From: Bugula neritina
Taxonomy: Eukaryota; Animalia; Bryozoa
NCBI GenBank assembly: GCA_964035545.1
Contig: OZ037773.1
Span: forward strand, 124,001 to 188,000
Reading direction: 5' to 3'
Length of the DNA stretch: 64,000 bases
Shown here: piece by piece, positions 1 to 37,071 of the stretch
Position numbering within the stretch: the stretch's first letter is position 1
Layout: every line of letters begins with the position of its first letter
Made by a program: the position numbers and the translations under genes
The notes under the pieces: model-generated
Databases searched by the model: none
Seen by the model: the letters and a program-made list of their open reading frames with translations, nothing else
Told to the model about the DNA's origin: nothing

Positions 1-345
1 TTTGGCAGGCTTGCCGGCTATTTGTCCTGGTAGAAACAGGCTGCTCTCGTGGGGATGTAGTGGTATCTTGGGTGACTTCATCTCCCTCGCCCTGGCGGAG
101 GAGTTAGGTTCCTGACGACGACTGGGGACCAGCTGTCGAGGGGAGGGGCGCCACGCCTTGCGGCGTTTGAGCTTTTCCCTCCGCAGACTTTGCGGTCCGT
201 CGTTTGTCGAACCTGTTGCGGGGTGGCATTGAGAACACCGGCGGCGAGCGGCTTGTACAGCCTGCTTGCCGTCCTGGTGGCCGTTTCGCGAGGTCCCGGA
301 CGGGTGTCTGGCGTGGCGGACGCCACTGTGTCCTCCCTTGGGGTT

Positions 346-1281
346 TTAACGGCGGCCCGCCGGATGTGGGAGCATCCGCGGGCCGTCGTAGTTTAACCCT
401 GGTTGAAGTCGGGGGCAGTGTTTCTGGAAGTGTCCTGGTCTTCCGCACTCCCAGCAAGAGGGGTGTCCTCTACCAGGCGACTGTACCGGTAGCCCGTCAA
501 GCTCACGGGTGGTGTCTAGCTGGCTTAGAGGGGCCAAGGCGGAGACCAATTCGGCTAGCATGTAGGTCATTTGTGCGACCTTCGATGCCACCGTCATCTG
601 CGTCACCTTGGCCACCGCTGGAGTTTCCGCGTGAGAAGCGGTAGGAGCAGCGGAGGGCTCCATGTCCACCTGGCGAGAAGTCACACGGTTCCGGTGCAGT
701 TGACTCGCCAGAAGGTAAGCTTCCCCTTCTGCGAGCGCACCTTCGACCGTGGTGACTCCCCTCGCCAGGAGTTGGGGATGGAGTCCCAAGTCGTTGATGG
801 ATTGCACGAAGGCATCATAAGTGTACCTCTCACGGTTTACTTGCGGCAGATCGCGGAACGCGATCTGCGCCAATCTCATTACCCTGGTAGCGTGCTCTTG
901 TAGCGGCGTGTGAAGATCACGTCGCAGTCTTTGGAGACGGGCCCGCGCATCTACAGCGGAGATACCAAAACAGGCTCGCAGGGAAGCAAAGATACCGTCG
1001 ATGTCCGGTCCCACTCCGTATGGCTTGGCGTTGTCTGACAGCGCCATCCTGAGCTTGAGCAATGCTATTCTGGGCAGCCACTGTGCAACCTCCATTACAT
1101 CTTGAAATTCCTGAACGAATTGCTCCACCGGCTGCTCACCTGAGAAGGTGGGCACCCTCAGCCGGTACTTCTCTTCATAACATTCCCTATGCACTCTCAC
1201 TTCTGGTTCTATAGGTATAGCAACGTTATCTTCCTCACCTTCATTCCTTCGAATGGGTAGCTCTGTGCCTCTTTCTGTCAT
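346..1281 (-). CDS. gag: Gag (capsid plus CCHC zinc knuckle), 311 aa
   Basis: Intact ORF starting about 16 nt after the PBS; CWECGRPGHFQKHC knuckle; near-identical to ORF 30086-31021. Confidence 0.9.
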   Translation of the reverse strand: MTERGTELPIRRNEGEEDNVAIPIEPEVRVHRECYEEKYRLRVPTFSGEQPVEQFVQEFQDVMEVAQWLPRIALLKLRMALSDNAKPYGVGPDIDGIFASLRACFGISAVDARARLQRLRRDLHTPLQEHATRVMRLAQIAFRDLPQVNRERYTYDAFVQSINDLGLHPQLLARGVTTVEGALAEGEAYLLASQLHRNRVTSRQVDMEPSAAPTASHAETPAVAKVTQMTVASKVAQMTYMLAELVSALAPLSQLDTTRELDGLPVQSPGRGHPSCWECGRPGHFQKHCPRLQPGLNYDGPRMLPHPAGRR

Positions 1282-1297
1282 CTTGATATACGCAAAG

Positions 1298-1315
1298 ATC
1301 CCACCGCTGCCACCA
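1298..1315 (-). promoter_or_regulatory. Primer-binding site complementary to the 3' end of tRNA-Leu
   Basis: TGGTGGCAGCGGTGGGAT, 1 nt from the LTR, complementary to the tRNA-Leu end ATCCCACCGCTGCCA-CCA. Same site at 8916-8933, 30053-30070 and 36710-36727, and a variant at 17537-17554. Confidence 0.88.
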
Positions 1316-1316
1316 C

Positions 1317-1663
1317 TGTTGTGAATTTTAGCACAATTATTAAGCGTGGATTGTATGCGTATTTAGTGTCAATTTAACTAGTAATCACTAGTCTGGCTTG
1401 CGTACGATAACCTTTATTTAACTCGATAAACATAATTATAACATCACATCAAAATACCACAATACATCAATCAATTATAAACACATGTTACTACTACGAG
1501 TCCCTGCTCTCAACAACACATGGTTTCTGCTGGCTAACCCGCGAACAGTGACTTGACCGGAACCTTGCCTTCCGGTCCTTCTGATTGGATAGTAGAACAT
1601 AATTATAAGTATTCCCATACATGAGGGGACGACCCCATTATTATACTACGTAATACCATTACA
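1317..1663 (-). repeat. 5' LTR of copy A
   Basis: TG...CA termini, adjacent PBS, homologous to LTRs at 29708-30051, 34199-34535 and 36729-37071; followed by ATAT. Confidence 0.9.
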
Positions 1664-3974: not shown

Positions 3975-4031
<57 letters not shown>

Positions 4032-4670
4032 AGTAATTTGTCCAATTACTGAGTGTGAGTTATTTACTTGCGTATAGCTAGCTGGTTATTCTGTTATCAA
4101 TTACTAAGGTAGCTGTCGAGTAATTATATTTATTATCCACAATAAAGCATAAACCAAACATCACATCAAATTATCCTATACAAGAGTCAACTACTAACAC
4201 ATGTTACTACTACAAGCCTCCGCTTACAACAACGTGATATAATCTTAATAACCGGGGAAGTGTCACGTGACTCGGAAGCATATCTTCCGGAGCTGCTAAT
4301 TGGTTGCTACATAAGAGTCTAAGTATTCCAAGAATAGGGAGAGGGCGATTCCTGTATTTGTACTTGCACTACTCACTACACCGTCCCCCCCAGCAGAAAG
4401 CCCTACTTTCTGATAACACAATAAAAAAACATAATGAAAAACCATACAATAATCCAAAAAGGAAATATTCATAAGTAAACCCACAAAGAGTAAGAAAAGA
4501 AATAGTTAAACACGACAACGTTTACATTAGAAGACAACAGGGTGATCGATCACACACATCTAGTCAGCTATTTAGAGAGAGGGTGCTTACCAGCACGCGG
4601 GCCAATGTCGGAGCGCTCGTCACATCCTAAACGAGCTATAGCTCAACGAAGGTGCCTACCCCACGCATTC

Positions 4671-5718
4671 TCATTGGTTGGACTCTGCTTCTTGTAGCGA
4701 CCGTGCTCTGTGTCGAGCCTGTCGGGCCCGTAGCCGCCTCTTCAGTCGTCCCACTGAGTCCTTCAACTGGTATAGACCTGTCGTCGTATCCAGCAAGTCA
4801 GGGGCAAGTTGTGTGAACTCGGCTTGCAGTCTTAGAAGCCGCTCTTCTACGTTAGCCAGCTGGCTAGGTCTTGGTGGGGTTATAGGGGTCTCCGTTATAC
4901 GGGATATGGTTGTCTCTTCTACTTCTGGGGTGTTGCTAGGGTTGACGGGAGTAGGAGGTGGGCCCTGAACCATAGGGGACTTATGGCGGGCAGATAGTAA
5001 CAGTACGTGAAACCCTGACGTTAGTGCGGCCAGGGTAATAGCCTTCCTGATGACTGGCTTGATGGCATCCAGGTATAGGGGGAAACTGTCTTCATCAACA
5101 GTGTGGTTCTCTCCGGCGAAGCAGCTTAGCTTATGTACTGTCACGGGATACGGGTAGACGTCGTGGAACCCGCAGGGACAGAAGTGGAGTAGGAAATGGG
5201 CATCCACATGTAAACGCAAGGAGCGGTGTGACGGGCACTCCTCAAAGCAGACCTGGCAGGTTCGGTGTGGTCCACTGGGTCCCCAGGCTTCTTCAATTCT
5301 CCTCTCTGTCGTGGGTGACACCCAACGGTGTCGTCGGCGGAGTACTACTGGTATGCCATTCTCCATTACAGGCTCTTCTTCCATAGACAGAGAGGTTGGC
5401 TGGTCCCGTGACCGGGAGGTGGTCACTCGAGTGTGATCTGAAAGAGTAGCAGTGTTAAAGATTATACACTGCGGCACCGTCGGCGTGTACAGCCTGACCG
5501 GTACTCTGTTCAGTTACACTCGTGAGATTCAGGCTAATGAATAGTTGATGGAGAACACACTCGCTATGATAGATTATTTAAAATCAAAGTCGACGTGTAT
5601 TCCCACCACTGTTTATCATTATCGAATCTCCAGCTAGCTAGTGTAGCTGACTGATGCAGTCTAGTTATCGTACCAAAAACATAATTAACTCACCCTTCGA
5701 TCCAGAATAGTAAGACAT
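4671..5718 (-). CDS. Spliced accessory ORF3 of copy B: C2H2 plus C2HC zinc fingers, Pro/Thr linker, coiled coil and Arg-rich end (about 263 aa)
   Basis: Exon 1 5718-5694 (ATG...AAG G|GTGAGT), intron 5693-5438 ending CTCTTTCAG, exon 2 5437-4671 in frame. Motifs CQVC-x12-H-x3-H and CPC-x12-H-x3-C. Same exon structure in copy D. Confidence 0.78.
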
Positions 5719-5741: not shown

Positions 5742-8000
5742 TTACTGTTTACTGGCACGTCTACTCTCGACTGCATCAACATAGGAAAAGACCGGACAGC
5801 GTGGTTGTGAAACGTGACTAGGGCTTTTCACTTCCAGCGGATGAATCTCGTGTGAGATTCCGCCGAGGCAAAAGTTGAGATTCTCGTGGTGATCACAACT
5901 CCCACGGCTCTTTGCCTGCTTTCCCATGCGAGGCCTCTCTAGACTTTTGTTACTGCCGCTTATACCGCGGTCACGTACACAGTCTCTGAGACACGCTGGA
6001 AGTTGCCTAGTGTGTGGTGTTGGTCCTATGTTGGCATCTCCTTGCGGAGCCCCTCCCACGGGGGGTTTTTGCACTTCCGGACCTGTTTCTGGTTCCGGAA
6101 GTGGTGATGATGGCAGGCTTGACGTTGGGGGCGGTGGGCGCACTTTCAAGGACGGAAGTGGCCTTTCTCGCCTCGCCAAGTCTTCTTGACGTGTCATGGA
6201 GGTGTTTCCGGCCAGGTTGACAGTCTCCGCCCGCCGAGACCTTCTCGCACAATGCGTCTGCCGCCCCGCTTCACCAGGGAGACGGCTATGCTTGTTGGTC
6301 TGGCAGACTTTGCACCGTCTCACTCTGCGTCGGATATCCCGTTCCATGTTAGGCCAGTACCACCGGAGTTGTAGCTTGGTGACCACCCCTTGGACTCCTC
6401 CGTGAGTCTCCTCGTGAGTGTCTTGTATCAACTTCCGGCGGATGGCAACTGGGCAGACAACCCTCTTCCTGGCTGGCTGTCTGCTGTTGGTGGCCAAGGT
6501 CATGGTTAGCAGACCATCTGGCCCGACCCGCAGAGAGCTCCAACGTTGACAGTACAGCCGTAACTCGGCGCATCCCTGTCGCCGTTGTGTACTACTGGGT
6601 CGTCGCCCCTCCTGTTTCGCTCGGTACACGTCGGCTACCACCCCAGGAAGGCATTCCTGGAGCTTCGGCAGCTCCCTAACGTTACCAGCCCATACAGGTT
6701 TGGCGCGGAGGCTCTGGGCAGCCTCCGGGGGCGTGTCAGCCCTCTGTTGAAGTGGCTGAGCAGGGGCGGTCCTCGCCGCCCGTGGTACCTCACGGCAGCC
6801 TGCTCTATTTAGGCGGGCTCCGTGGTTTGTGTGGCCGAACGCCTCACTGTACCCATGTGGCAACCTAGCCATAGCCTGGCGCTTTCCGTTGCCTGTGCAG
6901 CCACGCGTCCCTGGAGGAGGGGAGGCGTGGGTTGGGACGGTCCTCCGCCCTCGAGACGGGCTCTGCTGAGGACCTTCCGTCGTAGCTCCCGACGACGGCC
7001 CAATGGCTTCCTCCTGGACAGGATGGAAGCGACCCAGCATGGATCTGAGTGGTAGGTCTACTGTCTCTGAGAAGGGGTTGACACACTGCACTGAGATCTC
7101 TCCTTGCCCCGTGAGCCGGCTAAAACTACGGGCAAGTTGGACTCTCGAGTGCGTACTTTCGACAACTCCCAACTTAGAGGTTTGGCCACCGTCTACCTTG
7201 CAGCGGACGGTAGCCCGGGAGTGGCCTGGTATAGTACAGCTCCGTACTACCTGCACTGCTCCCGCTAGAGGACGACCAAACTTATCGACACAAGCGAGCT
7301 CCTTGTCGCCCATGATCATCGCAGATTTACTGAAATCGATGCGACAACCGTGTCGTTGTAAGAATGGCATCCCGAGGATAGCATCCTCGTTGAGCTGCCC
7401 GACGATAAACGTCTCTTGGATGGCCTGGTTACGGACGTAACCAGTTAGCTCAATAATGCCGTAGAAGGGAATGCACGACCCGTCTGCCAAGGTGCCATGA
7501 TCCCCCTCGTACGGTGCCAACCTGTCCTTGACCTTAGCGCTGAGGGTGTCAAAGAACTGACGGCTAAGGAGGTTGGTGGTGCAGCCGGAGTCCAGGAGGA
7601 AGTTGGCAGGCTTGCCGGCTAACTTCCCTGGCAGGAAGTAGCTACTTCCGTGCGGCTGCAATTGAGTGTGCCGTGGTTGCACCTCCCTCGCTGTGGGTCG
7701 AGGGGTCCACGGTTGGCGGCGACTATTGACCAGCTGCCGAGGTTGGGGCTGTACGCCTTGCGGCGCTTGTACCGTTTCCCTCGCAGGCTCTGTGGTCAAC
7801 CGTCTGCCGGCTCCGTGTTGGTGCCGGAGTGGCGTAGAGGACCCAGGCGGCGAGTGGCTTGAGCCTACTTGCCGCGGGGGTCGCCACTTCACAGCATCTC
7901 CGCGCGGCGCCCAGCGGGGCGACAGACGCGCGGGCCTCCCTGGGTGATTCACAGACGGCCCGCAGGAGGTGGGAACATCTGCGGGCCGGGGTAGTTTAAC
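5742..8000 (-). CDS. pol: Internally deleted Pol of copy B (-1 frame to gag): aspartic protease plus integrase HHCC domain and Pro-rich tail; no RT, RNase H or integrase core
   Basis: Open frame 5742-8102 with FLLDSGCTTNLL protease motif and H-x3-H...CKVC integrase zinc-binding motif. Comparison with copy C shows deletions at ~6753 and ~6192. Confidence 0.85.
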   Translation of the reverse strand, partial: VKLPRPADVPTSCGPSVNHPGRPARLSPRWAPRGDAVKWRPPRQVGSSHSPPGSSTPLRHQHGAGRRLTTEPARETVQAPQGVQPQPRQLVNSRRQPWTPRPTAREVQPRHTQLQPHGSSYFLPGKLAGKPANFLLDSGCTTNLLSRQFFDTLSAKVKDRLAPYEGDHGTLADGSCIPFYGIIELTGYVRNQAIQETFIVGQLNEDAILGMPFLQRHGCRIDFSKSAMIMGDKELACVDKFGRPLAGAVQVVRSCTIPGHSRATVRCKVDGGQTSKLGVVESTHSRVQLARSFSRLTGQGEISVQCVNPFSETVDLPLRSMLGRFHPVQEEAIGPSSGATTEGPQQSPSRGRRTVPTHASPPPGTRGCTGNGKRQAMARLPHGYSEAFGHTNHGARLNRAGCREVPRAARTAPAQPLQQRADTPPEAAQSLRAKPVWAGNVRELPKLQECLPGVVADVYRAKQEGRRPSSTQRRQGCAELRLYCQRWSSLRVGPDGLLTMTLATNSRQPARKRVVCPVAIRRKLIQDTHEETHGGVQGVVTKLQLRWYWPNMERDIRRRVRRCKVCQTNKHSRLPGEAGRQTHCARRSRRAETVNLAGNTSMTRQEDLARRERPLPSLKVRPPPPTSSLPSSPLPEPETGPEVQKPPVGGAPQGDANIGPTPHTRQLPACLRDCVRDRGISGSNKSLERPRMGKQAKSRGSCDHHENLNFCLGGISHEIHPLEVKSPSHVSQPRCPVFSYVDAVESRRASKQ
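7936..8000 (-). promoter_or_regulatory. Putative -1 ribosomal frameshift signal (G TTA AAC plus stem/pseudoknot)
   Basis: Slippery heptamer 8000-7994 in the gag frame. Stem CGGCCCGCAG/CTGCGGGCCG; loop TTCCC can pair with downstream GGGAG. Pol lies in the -1 frame. Confidence 0.7.
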
Positions 8001-8899
8001 CCTGGTGGGAGTTGAGGGCAGTTTCTCTGGAAATGTCCTGGCCTTCCGCATTCCCAGCAGAAGTGGTGCCCCATGCCTGGTGATTGTACCTGCGGCCCGC
8101 AAGGCTCACGGGCAGTATCTACCTGGCTTGGGGAGGCTAATGTGGTGACCAGTTTATCTAGCATGTCAGTCATCTGTGAGATTTTTGACGCTAGTGACAT
8201 CTGGTTCACACTAGCCACCGTGGAGGGTTCCGCATTTAATTCAGTGTGAGCAGTAGAGTGCTCCGTGGTCACCTGGCGGGAGGCCACGCGGTTGCGGTGC
8301 ATATGAGTCGCCAAGAGATAGGCTTCTCCCACCGCAAGTGCATCTTCGACTGTGGTGACTCCCCTCGCTTGGAGTTGATGGTGGAGCCCCAAGTCGTTGA
8401 TGGACTGCACGAAGGCATCATAGGTATACCTCTCACGGTGTACCGGAGGCAGATCGCGGAATGCAATCTGCGCTAATGGGTACACCGTGGCAGCGTGCTC
8501 TTCTAGTGACGTGTGAGGATCACGCCGCATCCTCTGTAGACGGGCCCGCGCATCTATGGGAGAGATGCCAAAACGGGCCCGCAGGGAAGCAAAGATTCCG
8601 TCTATGTCAGGTCCAGCTCCGTACGGCTTAGCTTTGCCCGTCAACGCCATCCTGAGCTTTAGCAACGCCACCCTTGGCGGCCATTCTGCAATCTCCATCA
8701 CATCCTGGAATTCTTGGATGAACTGCTCCACTGCTTCTTCGCCAGTGAAGTTGGGCGCCTTCAGCCGGTATCTATCTTCACCATGCTCTCTAAGAATTCT
8801 CACTTCTTCATCTAACACCACTGGTTCCACAGGTATATCAAAATCATCTCTCTCACCTTCATTCAGTGGAATGGGTAGCTCCGTGCCGTCTTCTGCCAT
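7949..8899 (-). CDS. gag: Gag of copy B
   Basis: Intact ORF, first ATG at 8899 (MAEDGTEL); CWECGRPGHFQRNC knuckle. Confidence 0.9.
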   Translation of the reverse strand: MAEDGTELPIPLNEGERDDFDIPVEPVVLDEEVRILREHGEDRYRLKAPNFTGEEAVEQFIQEFQDVMEIAEWPPRVALLKLRMALTGKAKPYGAGPDIDGIFASLRARFGISPIDARARLQRMRRDPHTSLEEHAATVYPLAQIAFRDLPPVHRERYTYDAFVQSINDLGLHHQLQARGVTTVEDALAVGEAYLLATHMHRNRVASRQVTTEHSTAHTELNAEPSTVASVNQMSLASKISQMTDMLDKLVTTLASPSQVDTAREPCGPQVQSPGMGHHFCWECGRPGHFQRNCPQLPPGLNYPGPQMFPPPAGRL

Positions 8900-9282
8900 G
8901 ACTGCTATACGCAAGATCCCACCGCTGCCACCACTGTAGTAATTTGTGCAATTACTGAGCGTGAGTTATTTACTTGCGTATAGCTAGCTGGTTATTCTGT
9001 TATCAATTACTAAGGTAGCTGTCGAGTAATTATATTTATTATCCACAATAAAGCATAAACCAAACATCACATCAAATTATCCTATACAAGAGTCAACTAC
9101 TAACACATGTTACTACTACAAGCCTCCGCTTACAACAACGTGATATAATCTTAATAACCCGGGAAGTGTACGTGACTCGGAAGCATATCTTCCGGAGCTG
9201 CTAATTGGTTGCTACATAAGAGTCTAAGTATTCCAAGAATAGGGAGAGGGCGATTCCTGTATTTGTACTTGCACTACTCACT

Positions 9283-9397
<115 letters not shown>

Positions 9398-9409
9398 CAT
9401 GCCAAATAT

Positions 9410-9761
9410 TGTAGTGAGTAGTGCAAAGTACAAATACGGAATCGCCCTCTCCCTGCTTTTGGAATACTAAGACCCTTATGTAGCAACCAATTAGCAGCTC
9501 CGGAAGATATGCTTCCGATTCACGTGACACTTCCCGGGTTATTAACATTTTATCACGTTGTTGTAAGCGGAGGCTTGAAGGAGAAACATGTATTAGTAGT
9601 TGACTGATGTATAGGATAATTTGATGTGATGTTTGTTTTATGCTTTATTGTGGATAATAAATATAATTACTCGACAGCTACCCTAGTAATTACTAGCAGA
9701 ATAACCAACTAACTATACGCAAGTAGATAACTCACGCACAGTAATTGCACAAATTACTACA
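9410..9761 (+). repeat. Solo LTR of family B with ATAT target-site duplication
   Basis: TG...CA, 352 bp, inverted homologue of 8935-9285; ATAT at 9406-9409 and 9762-9765. Inserted in a foldback-element arm (9397-10186). Confidence 0.92.
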
Positions 9762-11458
9762 ATATTTACTACAAACTTCAAAAATAGCATAAATTAAGTA
9801 GTATTACCGTGCCTATTTGCATCCAATTTACTAGTCTTACATTAATTATAGCAACTGTAACGTATTTTGTGTAGAATGGTTATTGCAAGTATTATTCAAT
9901 TCATATTCACGTGGTAATCACAGCGAAGCTTAAACTTTATAGCTTTGTATTTATGTGCATGATTGAGTTTTAATTTTTTTTAAAATTTTATATTCATTGA
10001 AAATATGTTTAAAACTTTACCAATAAATAAAATTTAAAACAATTGACACATAAAATTAAAAAAAAAATCACAAAAGTGATAAAATATTTCCTCTATAACT
10101 AATTTAAACTCGCGGTACCAATAGCGGCATTATGATTTTTCATGATTTAAAGTCAACACTCTTAAATATACCACACTGGATGAAACTTGTATTGCAAGCG
10201 CGCTACTATGCTACTCGCTGTAAGTTCAGTCTGCAACGAACATCCGGGCTGCCAAAGTGTAAAGCCACAGCCAATGGGCGAGGGCGTGCTGCTATCTAAT
10301 TATTGAATTGACTACTAGCAGTCGTTGCGTAGGCGGGAATCAAACGATGCGATAACTTAGTTGAATGAAACGTTACGCTAAACGCAACACTGAATGCTCG
10401 ATCGACTATGGTACTATGGTACTTTTACTACTGGAATTAATTATTGTAAGTGCTAACTTGACAGTTAGTGACTATGTTTAGTTGTCGATTGGTGTGTTGC
10501 AGTAGTATAGTAGTAGTACGTAGAAGCTGTCATAAAAAACGTCAACGTATACACATTAATCACTACTTTTAATTTGAATAAGAGTTGAAATGTTGTTCAT
10601 CAAATTCAATTTTAAGGACAAACGGTATTTTGATTTAAATTTAATGATAATACTAAATCTAATTGATTTTCATTTTTTTCGAATTTGATATTTAAAATTC
10701 AATCATTATCATATTTAAGTTTATATTTATATTTATTATCCATTATGATTATCATTATGATTGTCATTATGATCATCATTTGAATAGTAATGAATCATGA
10801 TATAAATAACATTAACTGATTACATTTACTGATCAAACAGCAAATGTTGTAAATGTAACAAATACAACTACAAGTGCTAACCCTGGTCTAATAGTAATAT
10901 AAGTTTTCACTAGAGGCTTCCCTCTCTATAACTCAGTATAAGTATAGGCATTTTAGTTGCTGCGGAAGTGCTACCTCAACTGAGATAATAATAAACTGTA
11001 GCAATGCTGTTATGATTGTTGGTATCATTATGATTAACTAAGTGATTATCATTAATGACCATGATTAAGATATTGTTATAATTTCCACAATTATAATAAG
11101 TATGGGGATTCGTGTATACTATAGTTATCCACGTTGCATTGCCAAACACCAGACGAGTAATTAAGAGAGAAGAAGATTTATATACCACACTAAGTACACA
11201 AGTAAAAGTAGTATAGTTTTAGTAGCACACATATATAAAACATCTATCCTAGTACACTCAGCATCACGCTTTAACTGAATTGTATTATGAAACTGTCCGG
11301 AAGCCTTTCTGCTTCACCGGGGGTAATCACGTGCTTAGTGGGGATTGGCTCGTGAGCACGTGGCGCTTACGCTTCACTGGCCACTACACCGCCCCCTCCA
11401 GCAGGGAGCCTACTTCCTGCTAAAAAAATGAGTGGGAGGGAAGCGTAAAAAAAGAACA

Positions 11459-11528
<70 letters not shown>

Positions 11529-11782
11529 ACCAGAATAAAAATGTACATAAGAAAAAATACTAAGAAACGTGTATCTTAGTATTTTTTCTTGTGTGTACAC
11601 AAATAATATCTTTCTAATCCTATTTACAAAATATAGTTTTCACAGCCCCGGTGGAGCACCAGGATGGAGGGAGACGGAGGAAATATATCCGGAGACGAAG
11701 GTGGTGTAGGGAGAGGGAGAGAGAGTGTCACACTAATCCTTAGTGGCACGTTTCAGCCGATTTATAGACTCCTGGAAGGACT

Positions 11783-12222
11783 TCAACTCGCTGCTTTTAC
11801 TCTGAGAGCCAACCGATGCACTTCCCTCTCGAGCTCGTTGGTCCTTACTTCGACTTCCTGCAGGTTACGGGCCAGTGGAGAGGAACGGGAGGGAACTGAT
11901 GAGGTCGATGTCTTCGGATCTTTACAACATAATTCTAGTGACAATCGACTGTTACTAGTCTGAGAGTCACAACTTTTATAAGGCACTCCAGAGACCAGTT
12001 GATTACGTGTAGACTGACCAAGAATGACAGTGTCTAGCTCGAGATCTAACAGATCGTCGGCCATTACTGCGTCCTCATCGTCATTCACGTTAAACGTGGT
12101 CCCTAGTAACTCTGATTCAATCCGACTGATTAGTTCAGAATTAACTGGCATCGGGCCTGTTTCCATAGATAGTAATACAAGACTTATACAGGCTTACCTG
12201 TGAACTTGGTATTGATCGACAT
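11783..12222 (-). CDS. ORF3 remnant of copy C (25-nt ATG exon with GTAAG donor; acidic region and coiled coil)
   Basis: ATG TCG ATC AAT ACC AAG TTC ACA G|GTAAGC at 12222-12198, the same position and phase as in B and D. ORF 11783-12166 ends in a heptad-like stretch (LQEVEVRTNELEREVHRL). Confidence 0.45.
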
Positions 12223-12331
12223 ACTCAACGTTCAGTAGTGGTAGTTGTGAGCTTAAGAGGTAGTTGTGAAATACGTCTGCCCTTGGCGATGTCAGCGTAG
12301 GAAAAGGCCGGGCAGCGTGTTTGATCTTTGC

Positions 12332-15300
12332 TCAGAGCGCATCAATTCCTCCCACTACTCCGCCCTCGCAAAAGTTGATATTTGCGTGGGGCTCACAACT
12401 CTTACATTTGCCCGATAATTCTCTCGAACGGTTTCCCCCTAGACTTTCAGACGCGCCGCTTTGGACGCAGTCACATACAAAATCTTTTAAATATGATGGG
12501 GGTTGCCTCGTACGTTGTCCCCGCTCTAGGGAAGGTGACGCACTCACCGGTGGACTAGTGGGTGCCACTGGCGGTGCTTCTGGTTCACTGGTAGTGATTA
12601 CTTCTTCCTGTTCTCCGGATGGAGCCCCTCCCTCCGTGGGGGTTTGCACTTCTGGAACCGGCTCGGTTTCCGGAAGTGATGGTATCAGACTTGGTATAGG
12701 AGGCGGCGGACGCACTTCTGTGGGTAGGAGCGGTCGCTCGTCTCGTACCAAGTCCTCTTATAGCGGAATGACCACTTCATACTCATGTCCATACCACCGT
12801 CACCCACGCGTTGTCGTCTGCCTCCTGGGCTCCAACAAAGGGGGGGCTTCTCCCACTGCGTCTGTGCTAGCCCATTACGGCTTCAAGCAAGCCTCATTTT
12901 GGATGGACATCTGTCCTGAGCGCTCGATCTTGTAGGTATGGTTGGGCATAGCCTCATCTATCACCTAGGGTCCCACGAACTTAGGCTGTAACTTAGCCGC
13001 CTGCCCGCGACGCTTACGATAATTGACCATTCACACCCAATCTCCTGTCTGATAGAGGGGTGGTTCCTTGGAATCCTCGCGCCGCACCTGCCACTGCTTC
13101 TCCCGCAGCATTTCGTGTGCGACCCTCATCCATTCCACTAGTTCGCTGGCATACTCGTAAATCGAGCTGTCTTGCTCTGGAATGTGGTAGGTAAGATGGT
13201 CAGGAACTCGAGTCTCTTTCCCGAGCCTCAGGAGGTTAGGGGTCTTACCAGTACTGGTGTGCGGGGTGCTACGGTATGCGCGCATGACTTGTGGCAATAC
13301 CGTATCCCATTCCTCTTGACTGCGCCCGAGTAGTAGACTCCGGAGCGCATCACCTAGCATCCGGTTATTGCGCTCCACCACCCCGTTGCCTTGGAGCTGG
13401 TAAGGAGTGGTCCTGCTCTGATTTACTCCCAGGAGGCGGCAAAAGTCGCTCATCAGTTGAGACTGAAATTGAACGCCTTGGTCAGAGTGTATCTGCTCGG
13501 GGAGGCCAAAGTAGCAGAATACATGTTGGTCTAGCACCCTGGCCACTGTCGGGGCTGACGCACCTGGGATAGCCAGAGCGTCCGCCCACCTGGTAAAGTG
13601 GTTGGTTAATACTAAGATCCAACTATTGCCTCTGGGGGTTAGGAGCATGGGTTCGACCAGGTCGACAGCTACTACTTGCCACGGCCTTCCAGCATATAAC
13701 CTTCGCCGTCCCGCTTCACCAGGGAAACGGCCATGCTTGCTGGCCTGGCAGATTTCACACTGTTTTACTCTGAGTCGAACATCCCGCCCCATCTTGGGCC
13801 AATACCACCGGAGTTGCAAATTGAAGATCACTCTTTTGACTCCTGCGTGAGCCTGCTTGTGAGTGTCCCAAATTAACTCACGGCGTATGGCAGTGGGACA
13901 GACCACCCTCTTCCTTTCCTCTGCCTTAGCTGTTCCTCTCTGGGTCGTCGCCCTTCCTTTTTAGCCCGATATACGTCTGCCACTACTCCAGGCAGGTTTT
14001 CCTGAAGCCTCTTTAGTTCCCGGACATTATCGGCCAAAGCAGGGTTGGCGTGGAGGTTCTGTACAGCCTCCGAGGGTTCGTCAACTGTCTGTTGGAGTTG
14101 ACCCTCGTCCCAGTCAAACCGTGCTCCGTGGTGAACCAGTGTCTCTAACTCATATCGTGGGGGACCTCCATCCCTCTTTTTGATGTTGAGACACTGTTTA
14201 CAACACCCGCCAGGTCGTCGGCTCAAGCCATTCGCATTGCTGTGCCTCTTACCCAGTCGATGTTCAATCGGGTAAGAAAAATCGGCTAGAATTTAGAGCC
14301 ATCGGGCGACCTGACTGGACGGTTCTGCTCACTTGCACAACCAAATCAAAAAGGCATGATCCGTACGCAGCCGGAACTTCCTGCCATACAGATAGGGTCG
14401 GAAGTGCTTCACTGACTTGATTACTGCCAGCAACTCCTTGCCAGTAGTGCAGTAAATTCGTTCAGTGTGTGAGGGAGACATGCTGTAGTAAGCTACTACT
14501 ACTTCCCGGCGTTCCTGCACCTGCGACAGCACAACGCCAACATTCTAGTCACTGGCGTCTGTGTCGAGGATGTACTCTAGAGTAGGATCTAGTTAGACCA
14601 AGATGGGTGCCGCCAGTAGGCAACCCTTGAGGCGGTCAAACGTCCACTGCCACGTCACTTCCTTTGCCGTGAGCCGGTTAAACGGCTGCGCTATCCCCGC
14701 AAAGTCTGGTATGTATAGCCTGTAATACTCTGCCAGACCCAGGAAAGCCCGGAGTCCGGTCAAGTCTTGGGGGGGTAACCCAGTCTTCTATCGCCCGTAC
14801 CTTTTCGGAATCTGTGGCCATGCCGTTTCGACCGACAACGTGCCCCAAATACTTGACCTCCGGCTGCAATAGAGCGCACTTGGAAGGTTTTAGCTTCAAA
14901 CTGGCACCTCTGAGTTTTTCGAAAACTTCTCTCAGACGACTGATGTGTGTCTTGAAGTCTGGGGAGATCACGAGGACTTGTTCCATCAGCCTCTGGAAAG
15001 TGGCTGGGGCGGAGGTCAGTCCAAACGGCAGTACCTTCCACTTCCACAATCCGTCCCATGTTAAAAAACGCCGCCTTCTCCTGGGCGTCGGGACTCAGAG
15101 GCACCTGCCAGTAACCGCTCAATAAGTTTAACGTACTGAAGTACTTGCTGTCGGTTAGGGCGTCCAAGGAATCGTCAATACGAGGTAGAGGGTAAGCGTC
15201 CTGTATGGTCACGCTATTTAGCTTGCGGTAGTCCACACAGAACCGCCATCTTCCGTCTTTCTTCCGGACCAAGACGACCAGCGAGCTCCATGCACTATGG

Positions 15301-16402
15301 GCTGGCTATATGAGGCCTCGTTCCAGAGGATCCTGGAGCTGTCGGCTGACCTCCTTCTCCGGTCCCAACCTGCGTGTGGGTTGCCAAATAGGGACTGTAC
15401 CTGCAGTCAGCGGTATCTCGTGTCTGACAGCTCCAGTCAGTTCCACGTCATTGTCTCCGCTGCTGAACACATCACCGTAGTCGCGCAGCAACTTCGCCAT
15501 GGCCTGGCCTTCTTCGTTGCTTGCACAGCCACCACAGGCCGTCTCATACAACTCCTTGATGTGTGGTGGAACAGTCCCCCACCCTTTTTGCGGGCGCTGA
15601 GGGGGCCTTCCGTCGCGTCTCCCAGCGATGGTCCCACGTCCTCTTCCTGGACAGAGTGAAAGCGGCCCAGCATGGATCCGGCAGGTAGCTTTATGGACTC
15701 CGTGAAGGGGTTTACGCACTGCACCAAGATCTCTCTATGCGCAGTCAGCTGGTTTAGACTGCTAGCAAGTTGGATTCTAGCGTGTGCACTTTCCACCACC
15801 CCCAGTCCGGAGATCTGGCTATTCACCCTGCAGTGAATAGTAGCCTGGGAGCAGCCTAGTATTGTACAGTTCCGTACTACCTGCACGCCTCCCGCTAGAG
15901 GACAGCCAAACTTGTCGACACAGGCAAGTTCTCGCCCGGACATCACCATCACAGACTTGCTAAAGTCGATGTGACATCCGTGCCATTTCAGGAACGGCAT
16001 CCCGAGGATAGCATCCTCTTTAAGCTGACTGACGATAAACGTCTCTTGGATAGCTTGATCTCGAATGCGTCCCGTCAGCTCAATTATACCATAGAAGGGA
16101 ATGCACGACCCGTCAGCCAGGGTGCCATACTCCCCATCGTATGGTTCCATCTCGCTCCTGACCCTAGTGCTGAGGATGTCAAAAAGTTGGCGACTTATGA
16201 GGTTCGTGGTACAGCCCGAATCGAGCAGGAAGGTAACAGCTTTACCCGCAATCTTGCCGAGTAGGAAATAGCTGTTCCCATGGGGCTGCACCCGCACTCT
16301 TGCAGGAAGCACCTCTCTCGCTTTAGGTAGGGGAAGTGGTCGTTTGGAACGGTGGTAGGGTGACCTCGGAGGAGGGGGAGGCAAGTTTCCTGGCACCTGC
16401 AC
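12332..16402 (-). pseudogene. pol: pol pseudogene of copy C (protease, RT, RNase H, integrase)
   Basis: PR FLLDSGC (15437-16402); RT RFCVDYRKLN and PFGL with the YxDD region deleted (14678-15272); RNase H KELLAV...TDH (14329-14532); IN VAVDL/SDQG/VERNN (13031-13906). Multiple frameshifts. Confidence 0.9.
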
Positions 16403-16639: not shown

Positions 16640-17520
16640 TTAAGGCAATATCTGCGGAAATGTCCTTGGTTTCCACATTCTCAGCAAAAACTGACTGCTT
16701 CCCCTGGTGGCGGTGTCAGTGGCCGTGAAGGCCCGCAGGCGGTACCTACCGGGGTTTTGTGTGTCAGTGCTGTCACCAGTTTAGCCAACATGTCCGTCAG
16801 TTGGGCGACCTTTGATGCGGCGGTTAACTGTCCCACGGCAGCGGCCGTGGGGGGCTCTGCCTAAAGATCAGCCGGAGTGACTGTGGACTCTACCTCCACC
16901 TGGCGGGAAACCCCGCGGTTCCTATGCATCTGGTTTGCCAGAAGATAGGCTTCCCCTTCTGCAAGAGCGCCTTCGACTGTGGTAACTCCCCTAGCTAGAA
17001 ATTGATGAAGGAGTCTCAAGTCATTGATAGATTGCACAAAGGCGTCAAAGGTATACCTCTCACGGTTAGCTTGAGGTAGATCGCTATACGCAATCTGCGC
17101 CAGCTTCATCACCGTGGCAACATGTTCTTGTTGCAGGGTGTAAGGATCACGCCGCAGCCTTTGTAGTCCGGCCCGAGCGTCTATGGCGGAGATGCCAAAA
17201 TTGGCCCGTAGAGAAGCAGAGATGCTGTCGATGTCCGGTCCTAACCCATAGGGCTTGGCCTTATCCATCAACGACATTCTGAGCTTCAGCAGGGCCACTC
17301 TGGGTGGCCATTTGGCGACATCCATAACGCCGCTGAACTCTTGTATGAATTGTTCCACTTTCTCTTTGCCCGTGAAGGTGGGTGCCTTTAACCGGTAACA
17401 GTCCTCGTTTAGCTCCCTCGGAGCTCTTCGCTCTTCTACTACATAATTCACAGGAACAAGATCATTTCCACGCTCACCTTCTATCGGCTGTGGGGGTGTT
17501 CCAGCATCCTCAGTCTCCAT
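16640..17520 (-). pseudogene. gag: gag pseudogene of copy C
   Basis: Homologous to the other gags; premature stop at 16861; knuckle reads C*ECGNQGHFRRYC. Confidence 0.85.
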
Positions 17521-18310
17521 CGTTGATGTGCACAGTGTCCCACTGCTGCCACCACTGTTATCTTTTCAGTATTGTGGGTTAGTGTGCAATCGAGTGACTT
17601 TCTATCATGTAAGCTAGATCAATTTCACCAGTGACATTCGAATTATAATAATATATTTCATACAATGATACACAATCTAAAAACTACATCTATCGAATAC
17701 ATCGACAGCTACTCAACACAATGTCTACAGTTTGCCACACTATTCCTAACTGACTGTTACTCGAGAAGTCACAGCTACTAATAATAGTTCATGATTCCTA
17801 TTGGCGGGTTGCTGTCTCGGATCATCTTCTTAATATACTTAGTGACCCCGTGCTGCACTTAGAAGGGAATTAACATTTACCCCGTTATTACGATGGTAGC
17901 TCCACGAGCCACCACAATAATACGGTTATACTAGTAGTAGGTCTAATTGTTACACTAATACTAATGATCATACCATTAGTAATAGTAATGCTAATGCTTA
18001 GTTATACTTATACATATGTTATAGTTTTTACTCATTTATCGAATACAATTTTTATGGAGCTATAACATAAGTATTTAAAGTATAACCAAGTATTGCTGAT
18101 AAAGTAGCTAATAATAGTATTGATAATAGTCACTCTTTCAGTTACAACTGATGATCATACTTGTGCTCAAACTGACACATTAAAATTACATTTAGTTTTA
18201 CTGGTGTCACGACTCACCAGGTGATACTATTAATCATTTATTTTCATGGTTATGAACTTGAAACCCTTTATCAGTAATTACTATGAGTAAGAGTCATACT
18301 AATAGTCTAA

Positions 18311-20235: not shown

Positions 20236-20267
20236 TAATTCTTTAAGCAAGCATTATGTGTGTATGT

Positions 20268-21407: not shown

Positions 21408-21736
21408 GTGTATGTTGCCTAGGTAAAATACTTGCCTATTCAAGTATTTTTGAGTCATTGGTTTTAATTATCTGAAACTTGGTTAGTCTGTGACTTGGTT
21501 TGCTTTGACTAACTGTTACCTCAACATGACTCTGGTCACACTGCTCTCTGTTGTACACACCAATTCATCAGCGCTCATTTGGTAGGCAACTTCATACAAT
21601 ATAATAATAGCATTAGCTTATATAAATTTCTCTCTTTTTAGCATTACTTTTCCCTGGCAAGTTAATTAGCTACTGTATATCTCAGTCTATGAGCCAGTAT
21701 GTATAATGTTTCCTATGATTTGTTGTTTTCAGGAAA

Positions 21737-30085: not shown

Positions 30086-31021
30086 ATGACAGAAAGAGGC
30101 ACAGAGCTACCTATTCGGAGGAATGAAGGTGAGGAAGATAACGTTGCTATACCTATAGAACCAGAAGTGAGAGTGCATAGGGAATGTTATGAGGAGAAGT
30201 ACCAGCTGAGGGTGCCCACCTTCTCAGGTGAGGAGCCAGTAGAGCAATTCGTCCAAGAATTCCAAGATGTAATGGAGGTTGCACAGTGGCCACCCAGAAT
30301 AGCAATGCTCAAGCTCAGGATGGCGCTGTCAGACAAGGCCAAGCCATACGGAGTGGGGCCAGACATTGATCGAATCTTTGCTTCCCTGCGGGCCCGTTTT
30401 GGTATCTCCGCTGTAGATGCGCGGGCCCGTCTCCAAAGACTGCGGCGTGATCCTCACACGCCGCTACAAGAGCACGCTACCACGGTAATGAGGCTGGCGC
30501 AGATCGCGTTCCGCGATCTGCCGCAAGCAAACCGTGAGAGGTATACTTATGATGCCTTCATGCAGTCCATCAACGACTTGGGAATCCATCCCCAACTCCT
30601 GGCGAGGGGAGTCACCACAGTCGAAGGTGCGCTTGCAGAAGGGGAGGCTTACCTTCTGGCCAGCCAGCTGCACCGGAGCCGTGTGACTTCTCGCCAGGTG
30701 GACATGGAGCCCTCCGCTGCTCCTACCGCTTCTCACGCGGAAACTCCAGCGGTGGCCAAGGTGACGCAGATGACGGTGGCATCGAAGGTCGCACAAATGA
30801 CCTACATGCTAGCCGAATTGGTCTCCGCCTTGGCCCCTCTAAGCCAGCTAGACACCACCCGTGAGCTTGACGGGCTACCGGTACAGTCGCCTGGTAGAGG
30901 ACACCCCTCTTGCTGGGAGTGCGGAAGACCAGGACACTTCCAGAAACACTGCCCCCGACTTCAACCAGGGTTAAACTACGACGGCCCGCGGATGCTCCCA
31001 CATCCGGCGGGCCGCCGTTAA
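30086..31021 (+). CDS. gag: Gag of copy D
   Basis: Intact 311-aa ORF with CCHC knuckle. Confidence 0.9.
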   Translation: MTERGTELPIRRNEGEEDNVAIPIEPEVRVHRECYEEKYQLRVPTFSGEEPVEQFVQEFQDVMEVAQWPPRIAMLKLRMALSDKAKPYGVGPDIDRIFASLRARFGISAVDARARLQRLRRDPHTPLQEHATTVMRLAQIAFRDLPQANRERYTYDAFMQSINDLGIHPQLLARGVTTVEGALAEGEAYLLASQLHRSRVTSRQVDMEPSAAPTASHAETPAVAKVTQMTVASKVAQMTYMLAELVSALAPLSQLDTTRELDGLPVQSPGRGHPSCWECGRPGHFQKHCPRLQPGLNYDGPRMLPHPAGRR

Positions 31022-31034
31022 AACCCCAAGGGAG
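30970..31034 (+). promoter_or_regulatory. Putative -1 frameshift signal (GTTAAAC plus pseudoknot)
   Basis: Heptamer 30970-30976; stem 30982-30989 / 31007-31014; loop CTCCC (30995-30999) pairs with GGGAG (31030-31034). Confidence 0.7.
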
Positions 31035-33372: not shown

Positions 33373-34207
33373 ATGGCTTGCCAGGAATCGAGAGGTGAGT
33401 TAGTTATGTTTTTGGTACGAGGGCTAAACTGTATTAATCAGTTTAACTGTAACAGAGTAAGCTGGAGACTCGGTAATGATTTTTAGTGGTGAGAATTCAC
33501 ATTGACTCTAAGACTGAGCAGTCTGTTACAGCAGTGTGTGTTTTCGATCAACTATTCATTAGCTGAGTCTCACGAGTGTCTAATTGAGTTAAATACCCAC
33601 CAGGCTGTATACGCCGGTCGTACTCAGTGTACCCTCTTACACTGTTATACTCTTGCAGATTACACTCGATCGACCAACTCTGGGTCACAAGATCTACACT
33701 CTCTCTCCTCCTTGGATAACGGACCGGAAATGGACAACGGACTGTCCGCGGTGCTGCGTCGAAGACACAGATGGGTGTCGCGACGGACGGAGCAGCAAAT
33801 TGAAGAAGCCTGGGGACCAAGTAGGTCACAACGCACCTGCCATGCATGTGTGTCACGAAGAGCTTCCCTCACACCAAGGACTACGGCTGCATGTGAATGC
33901 ACACTTCCTGCTACGTTTCTGCCCGTGTGGATTTCACGACGTATACCCATACCGCGTCGTGGCTCATATGATGGTCTGTTTCGCGGGCGAGGGCTATGTA
34001 GTGGACGCGGACAACTACGACCAATACCTAGAAGCTGTCAGACCAGTGGTTAAGAAGGTTTTGACCTGGGCCGCATTGTCCTCCGGATTTTATACACTAC
34101 TAACAGCCGCCCGTCAGAAGTCCCCTATGATAAAAACGGTCGCTGCAATAATACCTCGGCCGGACAACACCTCCATTGAAGCATCAGACTCTCCCGAAGA
34201 GTTTTAG
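33373..34207 (+). pseudogene. Spliced zinc-finger ORF3 of copy D (frameshifted and truncated in this copy)
   Basis: Exon 1 33373-33394 (ATG...AGA G|GTGAGT), intron to 33658 (CTCTTGCAG), in-frame exon 2. Apparent 2-nt slip near 33848; cut off by E at ~34199. Confidence 0.75.
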
Positions 34208-37071
34208 CACAATTATCAAGCGTGGATTGCCTGCGTATTTAGTTTCAATTTAACTAGCAATTACCAACAGAGCTTGCGTACGATAACTTTTATTTAACTC
34301 GATAAACATAATTATAACAGTATATCAAAGCCACAATACATCAATCAATTATAAACACGTCTAGCTACTACGAGCCCCTGCTCTCAACACACATGGTTTC
34401 TGCTAGCTAACCCGCGAACAGTCACTTGACCGGAACCTTGCCTTCCGGTCCTTCTAATTGGGTAGTAGAACATGGTTATAAGTATTCCACGCAGGAGGGG
34501 ACAACTCCATTATTATGCTACGTAATCCCATTACACCGCCCCCACCAGCAGAAAGCCATACTTTCTGATAAAAACAGAAATAGTATAATAATGCAAAAAT
34601 AACATAAGTCAAGAAAATCCACAAAGAGAAAGAAGAGAAATACCAAATGTACGACATATATAAACACATAAGTAAGATAACGGATGGCCAGTGTACAACT
34701 GGCCAGCTATAAAGAGAGAGTCCTGGATCGTAGGTCATTAGCAGTCGAGCATTTACATGATCACAATGTAGTATCCCGGGAACATGCGGGGTGGAATTGT
34801 CAACTGTCAGCTCCTATTTTTGTAGGGACTGGATCCGGTGTCGTGCTTGCCGTGCACGTAGTCTACGCTTAAGGCGTCCCACTGAGCCCTTTTGTTCATT
34901 AAAGCTCACTGAAGTGCTGAGTAAGTCGGGTGCCAACTGGGTGAATTCATCCTGCAGCCGTAGGAGTCTTTCTTCGACGGTTGCTAGTCGGGTAGGCCTG
35001 GTTGGGGTTGGCGTCGCCTCTTCCGGGGAGTCTGATGCTTCCATGGGGGTATTGTCTAGCCGCGGTATGATTGCAGCGACCGTTTTCACCATAGGGGACT
35101 TCTGACGGGCGGCAGGTTAGCAGCCTCCGTCTGCCCAGGTCTTTCTGCACTTTGCCTTCGCCACCCTACTTCCTCAGTAGGGGGGGCCGTGCTTACTGAC
35201 CCGGCAGACTCCGCACTGCCCAACTCTGCGTTGTACTTCATGCTCCATGTTAGGCCAATACCACCAGAGTTGTAGTTCGATGAGCACCTGTTGGGCTCCC
35301 CCGTGAGCCTGTTGGTGTACCTCTTCTATCAACTCTTGGTGGATGGCGGCAGGACAGAGGGTCTTCTCTTGGTCTGGCTGGTGGTGGTTATCGGCCAAAG
35401 ATATAGTCAGTAGACCATCCGGCTCGATCCGCAGTGCGTTCCAACGTCGGCAGTACAGCTGCCACTCAGCGCAGCCCTGCTTCCGTTGTCTGTCACTGGG
35501 TCGTCGCCCTTCCCGTTTCATTCGATAGACGTCGGCTACCACCCCCGGAATAGTTTCCTGGAGGTGTCCTAGCTCCTTGACGCCATCGGTTGAGACAGGT
35601 TCGGCGTGGGGGTCCTGTGCCACTTTTGGGGGCATGTCAGGGTCCCCAAGGTGAGGTGTAGCCTCGGTTTTGTGTAATGACGTGGCCGTCTCTGGGCGCT
35701 GTTCGTCATCCACGCAACCGTCGGATGTTCTCCCACGGGTCTCCTGGCTGTGGGGTGAGGCAGTCCTTCGCCCGAAGGGCGGGTTCTCTAGAGGACTTTT
35801 CATCGCGGTTTCCCGCGATGGCCTGCTGTTATCTTCTTGAACAGAAGGAGTACAGCTTGGTGGAGAGGTGGGTGGTAGGCTCACTGGTTCTGAGGGGGAG
35901 TGGAGGCATGGCACCGAGGTCTTTCCTTTCCGTGTCAGCTGGTTAGAGCTGCGGACAGGTGGGACTTTCGGGTGCGCGCTCTCTACAGCTCCCAGCTTGG
36001 AGGTACGGCCACCGTCTACCTTGCGGTGGACGGTGCCCCGGGAGTGGCCGGGCATAGTACAGGTACGTACTACCAGCTCTTCTCCCGTTAGGGTATGGCC
36101 AAACTTATCGACACAGGCGAGCTCCCTGCCGCCCATAATCATCGCAGATTTACCAAAATCAATGCGACATCCGTGTCGTTGTAAGAATGGCATCCCAAGG
36201 ATGGCGTCCTCCTGGAGTTGTCCTACAATGAACCTCTCCTGGATGGTCTGGTTACAGACGCTCCCAGGGAGTTCAATGATACCGTAGAAGGGGATGCACG
36301 ACCCGTCTGCCAGGGTGCCATGATCGCCTTCGTACGGTAGCCTTTGAAGACGGGCCCGCGCATCCACAGCGGAGATACCAAAACGGGCCCGCAGGGAAGC
36401 AAAGATGCCATCAATGTCTGGTCTCATTCCGTATGGCTTGGCTTTGTCTGACAGCGCCGTCCTGAGCTTGAGCAATGCTATTCTAGGTGGCCATTGTGCA
36501 ACCTCCATTACATCTTGGAATTCCTGAACGAATTGATCCACCGGCTCTTCACCTGAGAAGGTGGGTACCCTCAGCCGGTACTTCTCTTCGTAACATTCCC
36601 TATGTACTCGCACTTCTGGTTCTATAGGTATAGCAATGTTATCTTCCTCACCTTCATTCCTCCGAAGGGGTAGCTCTGTGCCTCTTTCTGTCATCTTGAA
36701 ATACGCGAAATCCCACCGCTGCCACCACTGTTGTGAGTTTTAGCACAATTATCAAGCGTGGATTGCCTGCGTATTTAGTTTCAATTTAACTAGCAATTAC
36801 CAACAGAGCTTGCGTACGATAAACTTTATTTAACTCGATAAACATAATTATAACAGTATATCAAAGCCACAATACATCAATCAATTATAAACACGTCTAG
36901 CTACTACGAGCCCCTGCTCTCAACACACATGGTTTCTGCTAGCTAACCCGCGAACAGTCACTTGACCGGAACTTTGCCTTCCGGTCCTTCTGATTGGGTA
37001 GTAGAACATGGTTATAAGTATTCCACGCAGGAGGGGACAACTCCATTATTATGCTACGTAATCCCATTACA
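34199..37071 (-). mobile_element. Further-deleted copy E (2.87 kb) of the A/D family
   Basis: LTRs 34199-34535 (terminal ~6 nt missing) and 36729-37071; PBS 36710-36727; PPT-like tract 34536-34551. Fused gag-protease ORF 35174-36694 and 3' half of ORF3 at 34814-35110. Confidence 0.9.
35174..36694 (-). CDS. In-frame Gag N-terminus / protease C-terminus / integrase HHCC fusion (506 aa)
   Basis: Junction ARLQRL|PYEGDHG at ~36338 removes the knuckle, the frameshift site and the catalytic DTG. Confidence 0.6.
   Translation of the reverse strand: MTERGTELPLRRNEGEEDNIAIPIEPEVRVHRECYEEKYRLRVPTFSGEEPVDQFVQEFQDVMEVAQWPPRIALLKLRTALSDKAKPYGMRPDIDGIFASLRARFGISAVDARARLQRLPYEGDHGTLADGSCIPFYGIIELPGSVCNQTIQERFIVGQLQEDAILGMPFLQRHGCRIDFGKSAMIMGGRELACVDKFGHTLTGEELVVRTCTMPGHSRGTVHRKVDGGRTSKLGAVESAHPKVPPVRSSNQLTRKGKTSVPCLHSPSEPVSLPPTSPPSCTPSVQEDNSRPSRETAMKSPLENPPFGRRTASPHSQETRGRTSDGCVDDEQRPETATSLHKTEATPHLGDPDMPPKVAQDPHAEPVSTDGVKELGHLQETIPGVVADVYRMKREGRRPSDRQRKQGCAEWQLYCRRWNALRIEPDGLLTISLADNHHQPDQEKTLCPAAIHQELIEEVHQQAHGGAQQVLIELQLWWYWPNMEHEVQRRVGQCGVCRVSKHGPPY

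Follow-up and report, generated by a model that had tools for sequence, protein, structure and literature searches.

What a gene with an intron does in the env position of an LTR retrotransposon, and how that intron outlasts reverse transcription, is the question raised by the 64-kb stretch of Bugula neritina DNA analysed here (the window). The export of intron-containing LTR retrotransposon RNA is understood in few cases. A dedicated protein has been shown for Cer1, a Ty3/gypsy element of C. elegans, where CERV is reported to be needed for export of the genomic RNA (PMC10309623). An earlier note on the window had described the present gene (ORF3) and had proposed a Rev/Tat-like regulator, an anti-silencing factor or an integration-targeting factor. 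The gag-leader first exon, the constrained intron hairpin, the conserved box before the mini-exon and the non-autonomy of three of the elements were not part of that description and are added below.

Five related LTR elements (A to E), a LINE and AT-rich host sequence were found within the window (Table 1). Ty3/gypsy membership is indicated by TG..CA LTRs, a primer-binding site (in B a putative match to tRNA-Leu), a polypurine tract, gag and the order protease, reverse transcriptase (RT), integrase in C, as well as by RNase H followed by integrase in the homologue P0245. By Pfam, protease, RT and integrase of C stand in gypsy order, but stops and frameshifts are present. The reading frame that the earlier note had called pol in B and D proved to be so in part: Pfam recovered protease and the zinc-binding part of integrase, whereas RT, RNase H and the integrase core were absent, and alignment of B with C placed the missing parts in two gaps, one of about 1.46 kb that takes out RT and RNase H and one of 1.0 kb that takes out the integrase core. 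B, D and E are non-autonomous deletion derivatives, yet B and D are under selection (dN/dS 0.23 in gag and 0.24 in protease). ORF2 is open and selected at 5742-8105 (B) and 31022-33352 (D), with a dN/dS of 0.39 for the retained integrase piece.

Table 1. Positions of LTR elements and ORF3-related features in the window (exon boundaries marked by a slash)
Feature	Position	Strand	Details
Element A	1-1663		
Element B	9285-4029	minus	Ty3/gypsy
Element C	about 17950-11075	minus	
Element D	29708-34200	plus	
Element E	37071-34199	minus	
B 5' LTR, TG..CA	8935..9285	minus	98.9% identity with 3' LTR over 352 nt; inside (TA)n tract
B primer-binding site	8916..8933	minus	TGG-starting 18-mer, one base past LTR; identical or nearly so in A-E
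B gag leader exon, 14 codons + 1 nt, ending GAAG/GTGAG; alternative first coding exon of ORF3	8857..8899	minus	43 nt ATG to donor; P0011
B gag ORF with zinc knuckle	7949..8899	minus	PF00098; dN/dS 0.23 against D
B ORF2: protease, integrase zinc-binding part, tail	5742..8105	minus	Pfam; two gaps against C
Box conserved as nucleotides before B mini-exon; candidate internal promoter or acceptor region	5745..5910	minus	B-D identity 41/44/42 of 55
B ATG mini-exon, 25 nt, donor G/GTGAGT	5694..5718	minus	X1 joint
B intron, 256 nt, GT-AG, conserved as nucleotides	5438..5693	minus	76.6% identical to D intron; absent from one X1 contig
Predicted 35-pair stem-loop in B intron; candidate response or packaging element	5523..5630	minus	z -4.66; same stem in D
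B ORF3 exon 2, 254 full codons + stop	4671..5437	minus	
Compact domain: Trp-helix, C2H2 finger, C-x-C..H..C finger, strand, three helices	4965..5372	minus	AlphaFold2 pLDDT 94.9, pTM 0.88
Long heptad helix to Arg-rich stretch (4748-4707)	4677..4862	minus	helix 192-253, pLDDT 68-97 by block; conservation
B polypurine tract and 3' LTR	4029..4390	minus	AATAAA at 4134
C gag leader exon, same length and donor, different peptide	17478..17520	minus	
C doubtful mini-exon and second-subfamily ORF3, finger domain deleted	11736..12222	minus	P0159 residues 1-78 (85%) and 306-355 match, nothing between
D gag leader exon	30086..30128	plus	
D mini-exon 33373-33394, intron 33395-33658 (stem 33465-33571), exon 2 to 34207	33373..34207	plus	exon 2 frameshifted near 33845, truncated
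E: C-terminal third of ORF3 (helix, Arg-rich end)	34800..35113	minus	55% identical to B

The tiny ATG exon that the earlier note had placed about 20 nt past the pol stop begins 23 nt downstream of the ORF2 stop in B and 20 nt downstream of it in D. In B its position, its donor, the 256-nt intron with a pyrimidine-rich CAG end and the in-frame phase-1 join to exon 2 were all found as described, giving a 263-aa product that ends at 4671. The 22-nt exon and 264-nt intron attributed to D are likewise there, but D's exon 2 is frameshifted and runs only up to E's LTR at 34207. The statement that C has the same 25-nt exon did not hold: 25 nt of the form ATG..G/GTAAG exist at 12222-12198, but their sequence differs from that of B's mini-exon, they lie about 109 nt past the stop (judged by eye), the family-typical ORF start comes 31 nt beyond the GTAAG donor, and a fitting intron would measure 41 nt. 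This candidate was rejected as an equal of B's mini-exon. An ORF3 is nonetheless present in this RT- and integrase-bearing relative, as a member of a second subfamily from which both fingers (residues 79-305 of P0159) were lost by deletion. By eye, in the alignments, a conserved YAG-ACGT with a branch-point-like word was seen 42, 39 and 54 nt upstream of the three mini-exon ATGs, at approximately 5764-5761 (B), 33331-33334 (D) and 12279-12276 (C). This may be a third acceptor, and its use with the gag donor would shift the frame.

A second way into ORF3 starts in gag. The donor GAAG/GTGAG stands exactly 43 nt past the gag ATG in five of five elements, including C, despite the differing 14 leader residues there, and it is the sole AGGT[AG]AG in 3.46 kb of B. 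Both this donor and the mini-exon donor are phase 1, as is the exon-2 acceptor that they have in common. Of the 39 gag homologues whose N-terminus was parsed, EGE stands at the donor in 27 and G-E or S-E, by which the GT is retained, in nine (two are broken and one is misparsed). P0011 (JGI, 5,320-nt contig) continues from the gag leader directly into the acceptor Asp of exon 2, and is the only gag-led protein among the ORF3-type proteins screened (1 of the 120 listed). All 35 homologues translated through the acceptor have Ser or Leu followed by Asp or Gly, compatible with YAG/G (43 rows minus six misparsed, P0011 and the window's own protein; near-duplicates included). With its two first exons, ORF3 would have 269 aa when gag-led (by arithmetic) or 263 aa when led by the mini-exon.

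The splice joint of the mini-exon was looked for in contigs of run X1. One contig (depth 843) joins 5437 to 5694, skipping exactly 256 nt with CT..AC ends, on a side of 29 nt and with a likeness floor of 80; artefacts are frequent among joints whose side is below 30 or whose likeness is below 95, and other sequence may stand in for the skipped part. In this case the ends had been predicted in advance, and the joint is the only one with canonical ends among 15 listed of 39, the other 14 being non-canonical. The first 25 intron bases are near-identical in B and D, so an intron-bearing relative would have aligned beyond the donor. For D, none of the eight joints in X1 contigs falls at either predicted splice (33394/33659 or 30128/33659). 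Run X1 looks like diploid DNA, judging from a longest contig of 59 kb and from diverged pieces with depths around 50 and around 100. If it is DNA, the joint would represent retrotransposed copies of spliced RNA, a minority against intron depths of 6,940-15,346. Each ORF3 junction rests on one record, namely one X1 contig for the mini-exon and P0011 for the gag leader. Scans of metagenomes, viruses and prokaryotes confirmed no related DNA loci, so the evidence for the splice sites and the hairpin comes from the copies in the window and from protein-level proxies.

The protein motifs reported for B were present: C-x2-C-x12-H-x3-H, C-x-C-x12-H-x3-C, a Pro/Thr linker, a heptad helix and the RLKRRLRARQARHR end. 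Both fingers are held in one compact fold of 136 residues in the AlphaFold2 model, and the C-terminal part is a single long helix, for which dimer prediction gave a score of 0.04. The homologue search returned 134 close homologues, and clustering at 50% gave 120 representatives. The C-type subfamily comprises 53 proteins, is 33% identical to the B-type and has its second recognition helix replaced. The eight zinc ligands are retained in 47-52 of 52 sequences. All 50 diverse members compared share Cys154, His167, His171, Cys177 and Cys179, while Cys151 and His192 occur in 48 and Trp130 in 44. Finger 1 is a classical C2H2 finger, helix included (profile matches HIC2 at E 3e-6 and SALL3 at 6e-6), and Pfam zf-C2H2_4 was detected in 18 of the 50 members, although the window's own protein had no Pfam match. 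Arg and Asp of the second finger are kept in 39 and 37 of 50, and each of the nine basic positions of the Arg-rich motif (R230-R243) in 35-44 of 52; this motif could serve only as a nuclear localisation signal.

In the structural comparison, neither PDB nor the viral models yielded a Foldseek match at E 0.001. For the 136-residue domain the listed matches are of low quality and extend over the fingers or over generic helices, the best being VIA (Z 4.0, rmsd 8.0, 96 aligned) and the Kaiso fingers (Z 3.9, rmsd 3.5, 59 aligned); such results establish neither that the fold is new nor that it differs from known ones. A transmembrane segment was not found in three members (best 19-residue hydropathy 1.43 in B, 0.88 and 0.69 in the others), which, together with the zinc-finger domain, bears out the earlier view that ORF3 is not Env. 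The leucine-rich export pattern was matched by 24 of 32 C-type N-termini, the rate in shuffles being 60%, and all of its B-type matches lie inside the folded domain.

Between B and D/E, ORF3 has a dN/dS of 0.25 (0.10-0.51) on 60 codons; elsewhere pN is 0.25 and pS is saturated at 0.82. Identity in exon 2 by codon position is 67, 68 and 40 of 90. ORF3 is under purifying selection in this comparison. Both neutral evolution and the one-off capture of a host fragment, which the earlier note had named as possible refutations, were rejected on the basis of this selection and the family of homologues. Taken together, ORF3 is almost certainly a real, spliced and selected gene, whose protein probably starts from either of two first exons.

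The intron is itself constrained. Its 76.6% identity between B and D compares with 44% (40/90) at third positions of the adjacent exon 2 and 66% at those of gag. Whole-intron folding gave z of -4.66 in B and of -2.30 and -1.87 in D; for the stem core, which was chosen after folding, z is -6.4 (B) and -5.3 (D). The two stems have 35 pairs in common, with all 70 cells paired and three two-sided changes, a covariation that is not significant for two sequences (64 of 500 shuffles). In B, folding is better than in shuffles (z below -2) for 10 of the 13 tiles that span the intron and the region as far as the gag donor, as against none of four over exon 2 and the 3' UTR, and in D for nine of 13 as against none of two beyond the acceptor. 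The stem is not unique, given that z below -2 was obtained in 14 of 86 windows of B and 24 of 73 of D, and much of gag-pol folds as well. Rfam had no match above noise, its three sub-threshold matches being outside ORF3. Constraint at the nucleotide level was also seen over the last 55 codons of ORF2 (165 nt), where B-D identity is even over codon positions 1, 2 and 3 (41/44/42) and blocks are common to C.

Precedents for a third ORF in place of env, often a spliced one, exist in bdelloid LTR retrotransposons, in which such ORFs are reported to be family-specific, generally spliced and kept by a non-autonomous family (PMC5408684). Those proteins differ from the present one in being GDSL esterases, DEDDy exonucleases, or transmembrane or coiled-coil proteins, and the word 'zinc' is absent from the main text of that paper (PMC5408684). 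It is likewise absent from the available text of surveys of metazoan, annelid and tubeworm elements (PMC13524379, PMC8556966, PMC8220671). No account of the ORF3 family was found in the literature searched, a scope outside which most subscription journals, Repbase and supplements fall.

The only named homologues of ORF3 come from two bryozoans. Uncharacterised proteins of Watersipora subatra (XP_067940963/4, XP_067944745) and Bugula neritina (KAF6040922/3) have the same domain of Trp, C2H2 finger and C-x-C finger (E 1.5e-33 for XP_067940964), often with a C-terminal heptad helix. They differ from ORF3 in being larger and annotated as host genes, and some have two copies of the domain. Domestication of the domain in these two genomes is possible. 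P0244, P0191, P0423 and P0424 are annotated Watersipora and Bugula genes with the ORF3 domain, two of them adjacent in Bugula.

Among the functions proposed in the earlier note, we infer that a Rev/Tat-like nuclear regulator is the best reading. More specifically, by analogy, ORF3 may act in the nucleus as a CERV/Rev-like switch by which intron-containing genomic RNA escapes splicing and is exported; we give this reading a probability of roughly 40%. With a strong gag donor and a strong ORF3 acceptor, splicing would be the default and genomic RNA would have to avoid it. A basic, oligomer-type finger protein made from spliced RNA and a structure found only in unspliced RNA would be the parts of a feedback switch. 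In such a scheme, the LTR transcript would be spliced by default to ORF3 mRNA, with everything from gag codon 15 to the acceptor removed, hairpin included. ORF3 would then enter the nucleus by its basic end, oligomerise by its helix and bind a structure present only in unspliced RNA, for which the intron hairpin is the best candidate. The unspliced RNA would be exported, translated into Gag and ORF2, and packaged. Non-autonomous B, D and E would each retain a diverged ORF3 of their own, with RT and integrase supplied by C-type elements.

Several results weigh against this scheme. The export pattern does not exceed shuffles, and finger 1 is an ordinary C2H2 finger, of the kind best known from DNA binders. 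The hairpin is known from two sequences without significant covariation, folds weakly over the whole intron in D and has company in gag-pol. Should X1 be DNA, there are a number of copies that lack the intron, and elements may thus be able to do without the hairpin in cis. Splicing of env in simple retroelements also takes place without any Rev.

Rev is a helix-loop-helix protein, whereas ORF3 has zinc fingers, no export signal above chance and an envelope-less retrotransposon as its host. Alike in ORF3 and the Rev/RRE system of complex retroviruses, as the CERV report summarises it, are a small protein translated from fully spliced mRNA, an Arg-rich stretch and, as a candidate in the case of ORF3, a structured RNA present only in intron-containing RNA (PMC10309623). 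CERV is closer in layout: both are non-env ORFs located in the interval from pol to the 3' LTR, expressed from a spliced mRNA with an N-terminus in common with Gag (for ORF3, the donor in five of five elements and one junction protein from a single record), and the leucine zipper, candidate nuclear localisation signal, cysteine finger and predicted multimer of CERV are features that ORF3 resembles (PMC10309623). CERV differs in its 517 aa, five exons, C4-type loop and G-protein-like domain, and the same text reports it without homologues outside nematodes (PMC10309623). ORF3 for its part, at 263-269 aa, combines C2H2 and C2HC fingers with a choice between two first exons and with an intron hairpin that is conserved.

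If the switch is real, it would be a second, apparently unrelated solution to export in another phylum than that of CERV, with a small, well-modelled domain and a named candidate RNA target, and it would explain why a spliceable intron is kept through many rounds of reverse transcription. The two natural subfamilies differ in their recognition helices, so specificity would be directly testable. A bolder version, which we regard as unlikely and offer tentatively, is that an envelope-less lineage of bryozoans and relatives independently evolved a full complex-retrovirus circuit. This would comprise a new zinc-finger family, two first exons (LTR/gag leader and internal start), recognition of the intron hairpin, and satellites whose matched regulator-hairpin pairs control export apart from their helpers, some domain copies having perhaps become host genes.

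The main alternative, possible if somewhat unlikely, is an activator comparable to foamy virus Tas. The mini-exon mRNA would be the first product, made from an internal promoter within the final 165 nt of ORF2, and a dimeric finger protein would bind DNA of the LTR and the internal promoter and switch the element on. The box conserved as nucleotides stands directly before the mini-exon, and this tiny ATG exon needs a 5' end of its own; the profile matches of finger 1 are DNA-binding C2H2 proteins, the second-finger Arg and Asp are kept, and the C-type N-terminus is acidic. The LTR and the box, however, have just two 8-mers in common, no excess over the one to nine of control tiles. There are only two fingers with a 5-residue linker, the second helix of the B-type contains prolines, the acidic region is short, and an activator alone does not explain the constrained intron or the gag donor. 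Tas is not known to be a C2H2 protein. It is reported to be a DNA-binding protein that is expressed by way of an internal promoter and that directs splicing too (PMC13220597), and ORF3 is similar in being a putative regulator gene 3' of pol with a possible 5' end of its own, splicing and possible DNA binding. Given that Tas steers splicing from a DNA site, at least in that text, this reading and the RNA switch can overlap (PMC13220597).

An improbable alternative is a family-specific anti-silencing factor that would coat its own copies and block heterochromatin or small-RNA silencing, for which VANC is the comparison. The strong divergence of B-type and C-type ORF3 with the replaced second recognition helix, and the selection by which non-autonomous families keep their own version, would suit such a factor; this divergence suits any regulator with cognate sites, however, the splice layout is left unexplained, and Pfam and profile searches found no enzyme or chromatin-reader domain.

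The mini-exon and hairpin might instead be a packaging or dimerisation device, with ORF3 a cytoplasmic particle or RNA-selection protein. A spliceable intron that survives reverse transcription needs selection for intron-containing RNA, and the structure is confined to the part found only in unspliced RNA. Gag, though, already has its own knuckle, and basic clusters past the domain in 17 of the 25 family members examined (by a crude pattern) suit nuclear import, so that this reading appears very improbable.

Integration targeting is the weakest of the three options of the earlier note and the least probable reading here: a tether of the pre-integration complex to target DNA would fit ATAT flanks at LTR junctions and the domain of P0245 in one frame with RNase H and integrase, but that fusion is a single record with the domain about 500 residues beyond integrase, its cluster partner P0230 is free-standing, the ATAT preference is common to elements with very different ORF3 helices, and a 4-bp target preference is usually set by integrase. 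The one-frame fusion does tie a distant family member to a gypsy pol.

Some further features of the window were recorded. ATAT flanks seven of eight LTR junctions (9285, 4029, 9410, 9761, 29708, 1663, 11075, 37071; that of E is ATAC), which suggests a fixed 4-bp target for insertion. B, itself inside the (TA)n tract, adjoins an inverted solo LTR (9410-9761), and D and E meet tail to tail at 34199-34207, the 3' end of D being replaced by the 3' LTR of E. No match exists between the 5' LTR (17556-17954) and the 3' LTR (11075-11387) of C, which may therefore combine parts of two elements; sequence related to its 3' LTR recurs at 47713-47858. A G-TTA-AAC heptamer near the end of gag at about 8000 (B), 30970 (D) and 400 (A) may be a -1 frameshift site, and the ORF2 frame of D and A departs from that of B further on past the heptamer. 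Another X1 contig (depth 372) skips 2,010 nt of D (30164-32175) and resembles the gag-protease deletion type of E, which points to further shortened subfamilies. Outside the LTR elements, a host segment is duplicated 30.9 kb apart (18928-23777 and 49840-54751, 91-95% identity), with a Cys-containing, extracellular-looking exon at 22821 and 53802. The LINE (40225-43658, minus strand) has an open endonuclease/RT-like ORF of 954 aa with a 235-aa ORF upstream (domains judged by eye), and a 20-nt tandem array with strong strand skew occupies 60721-64000.
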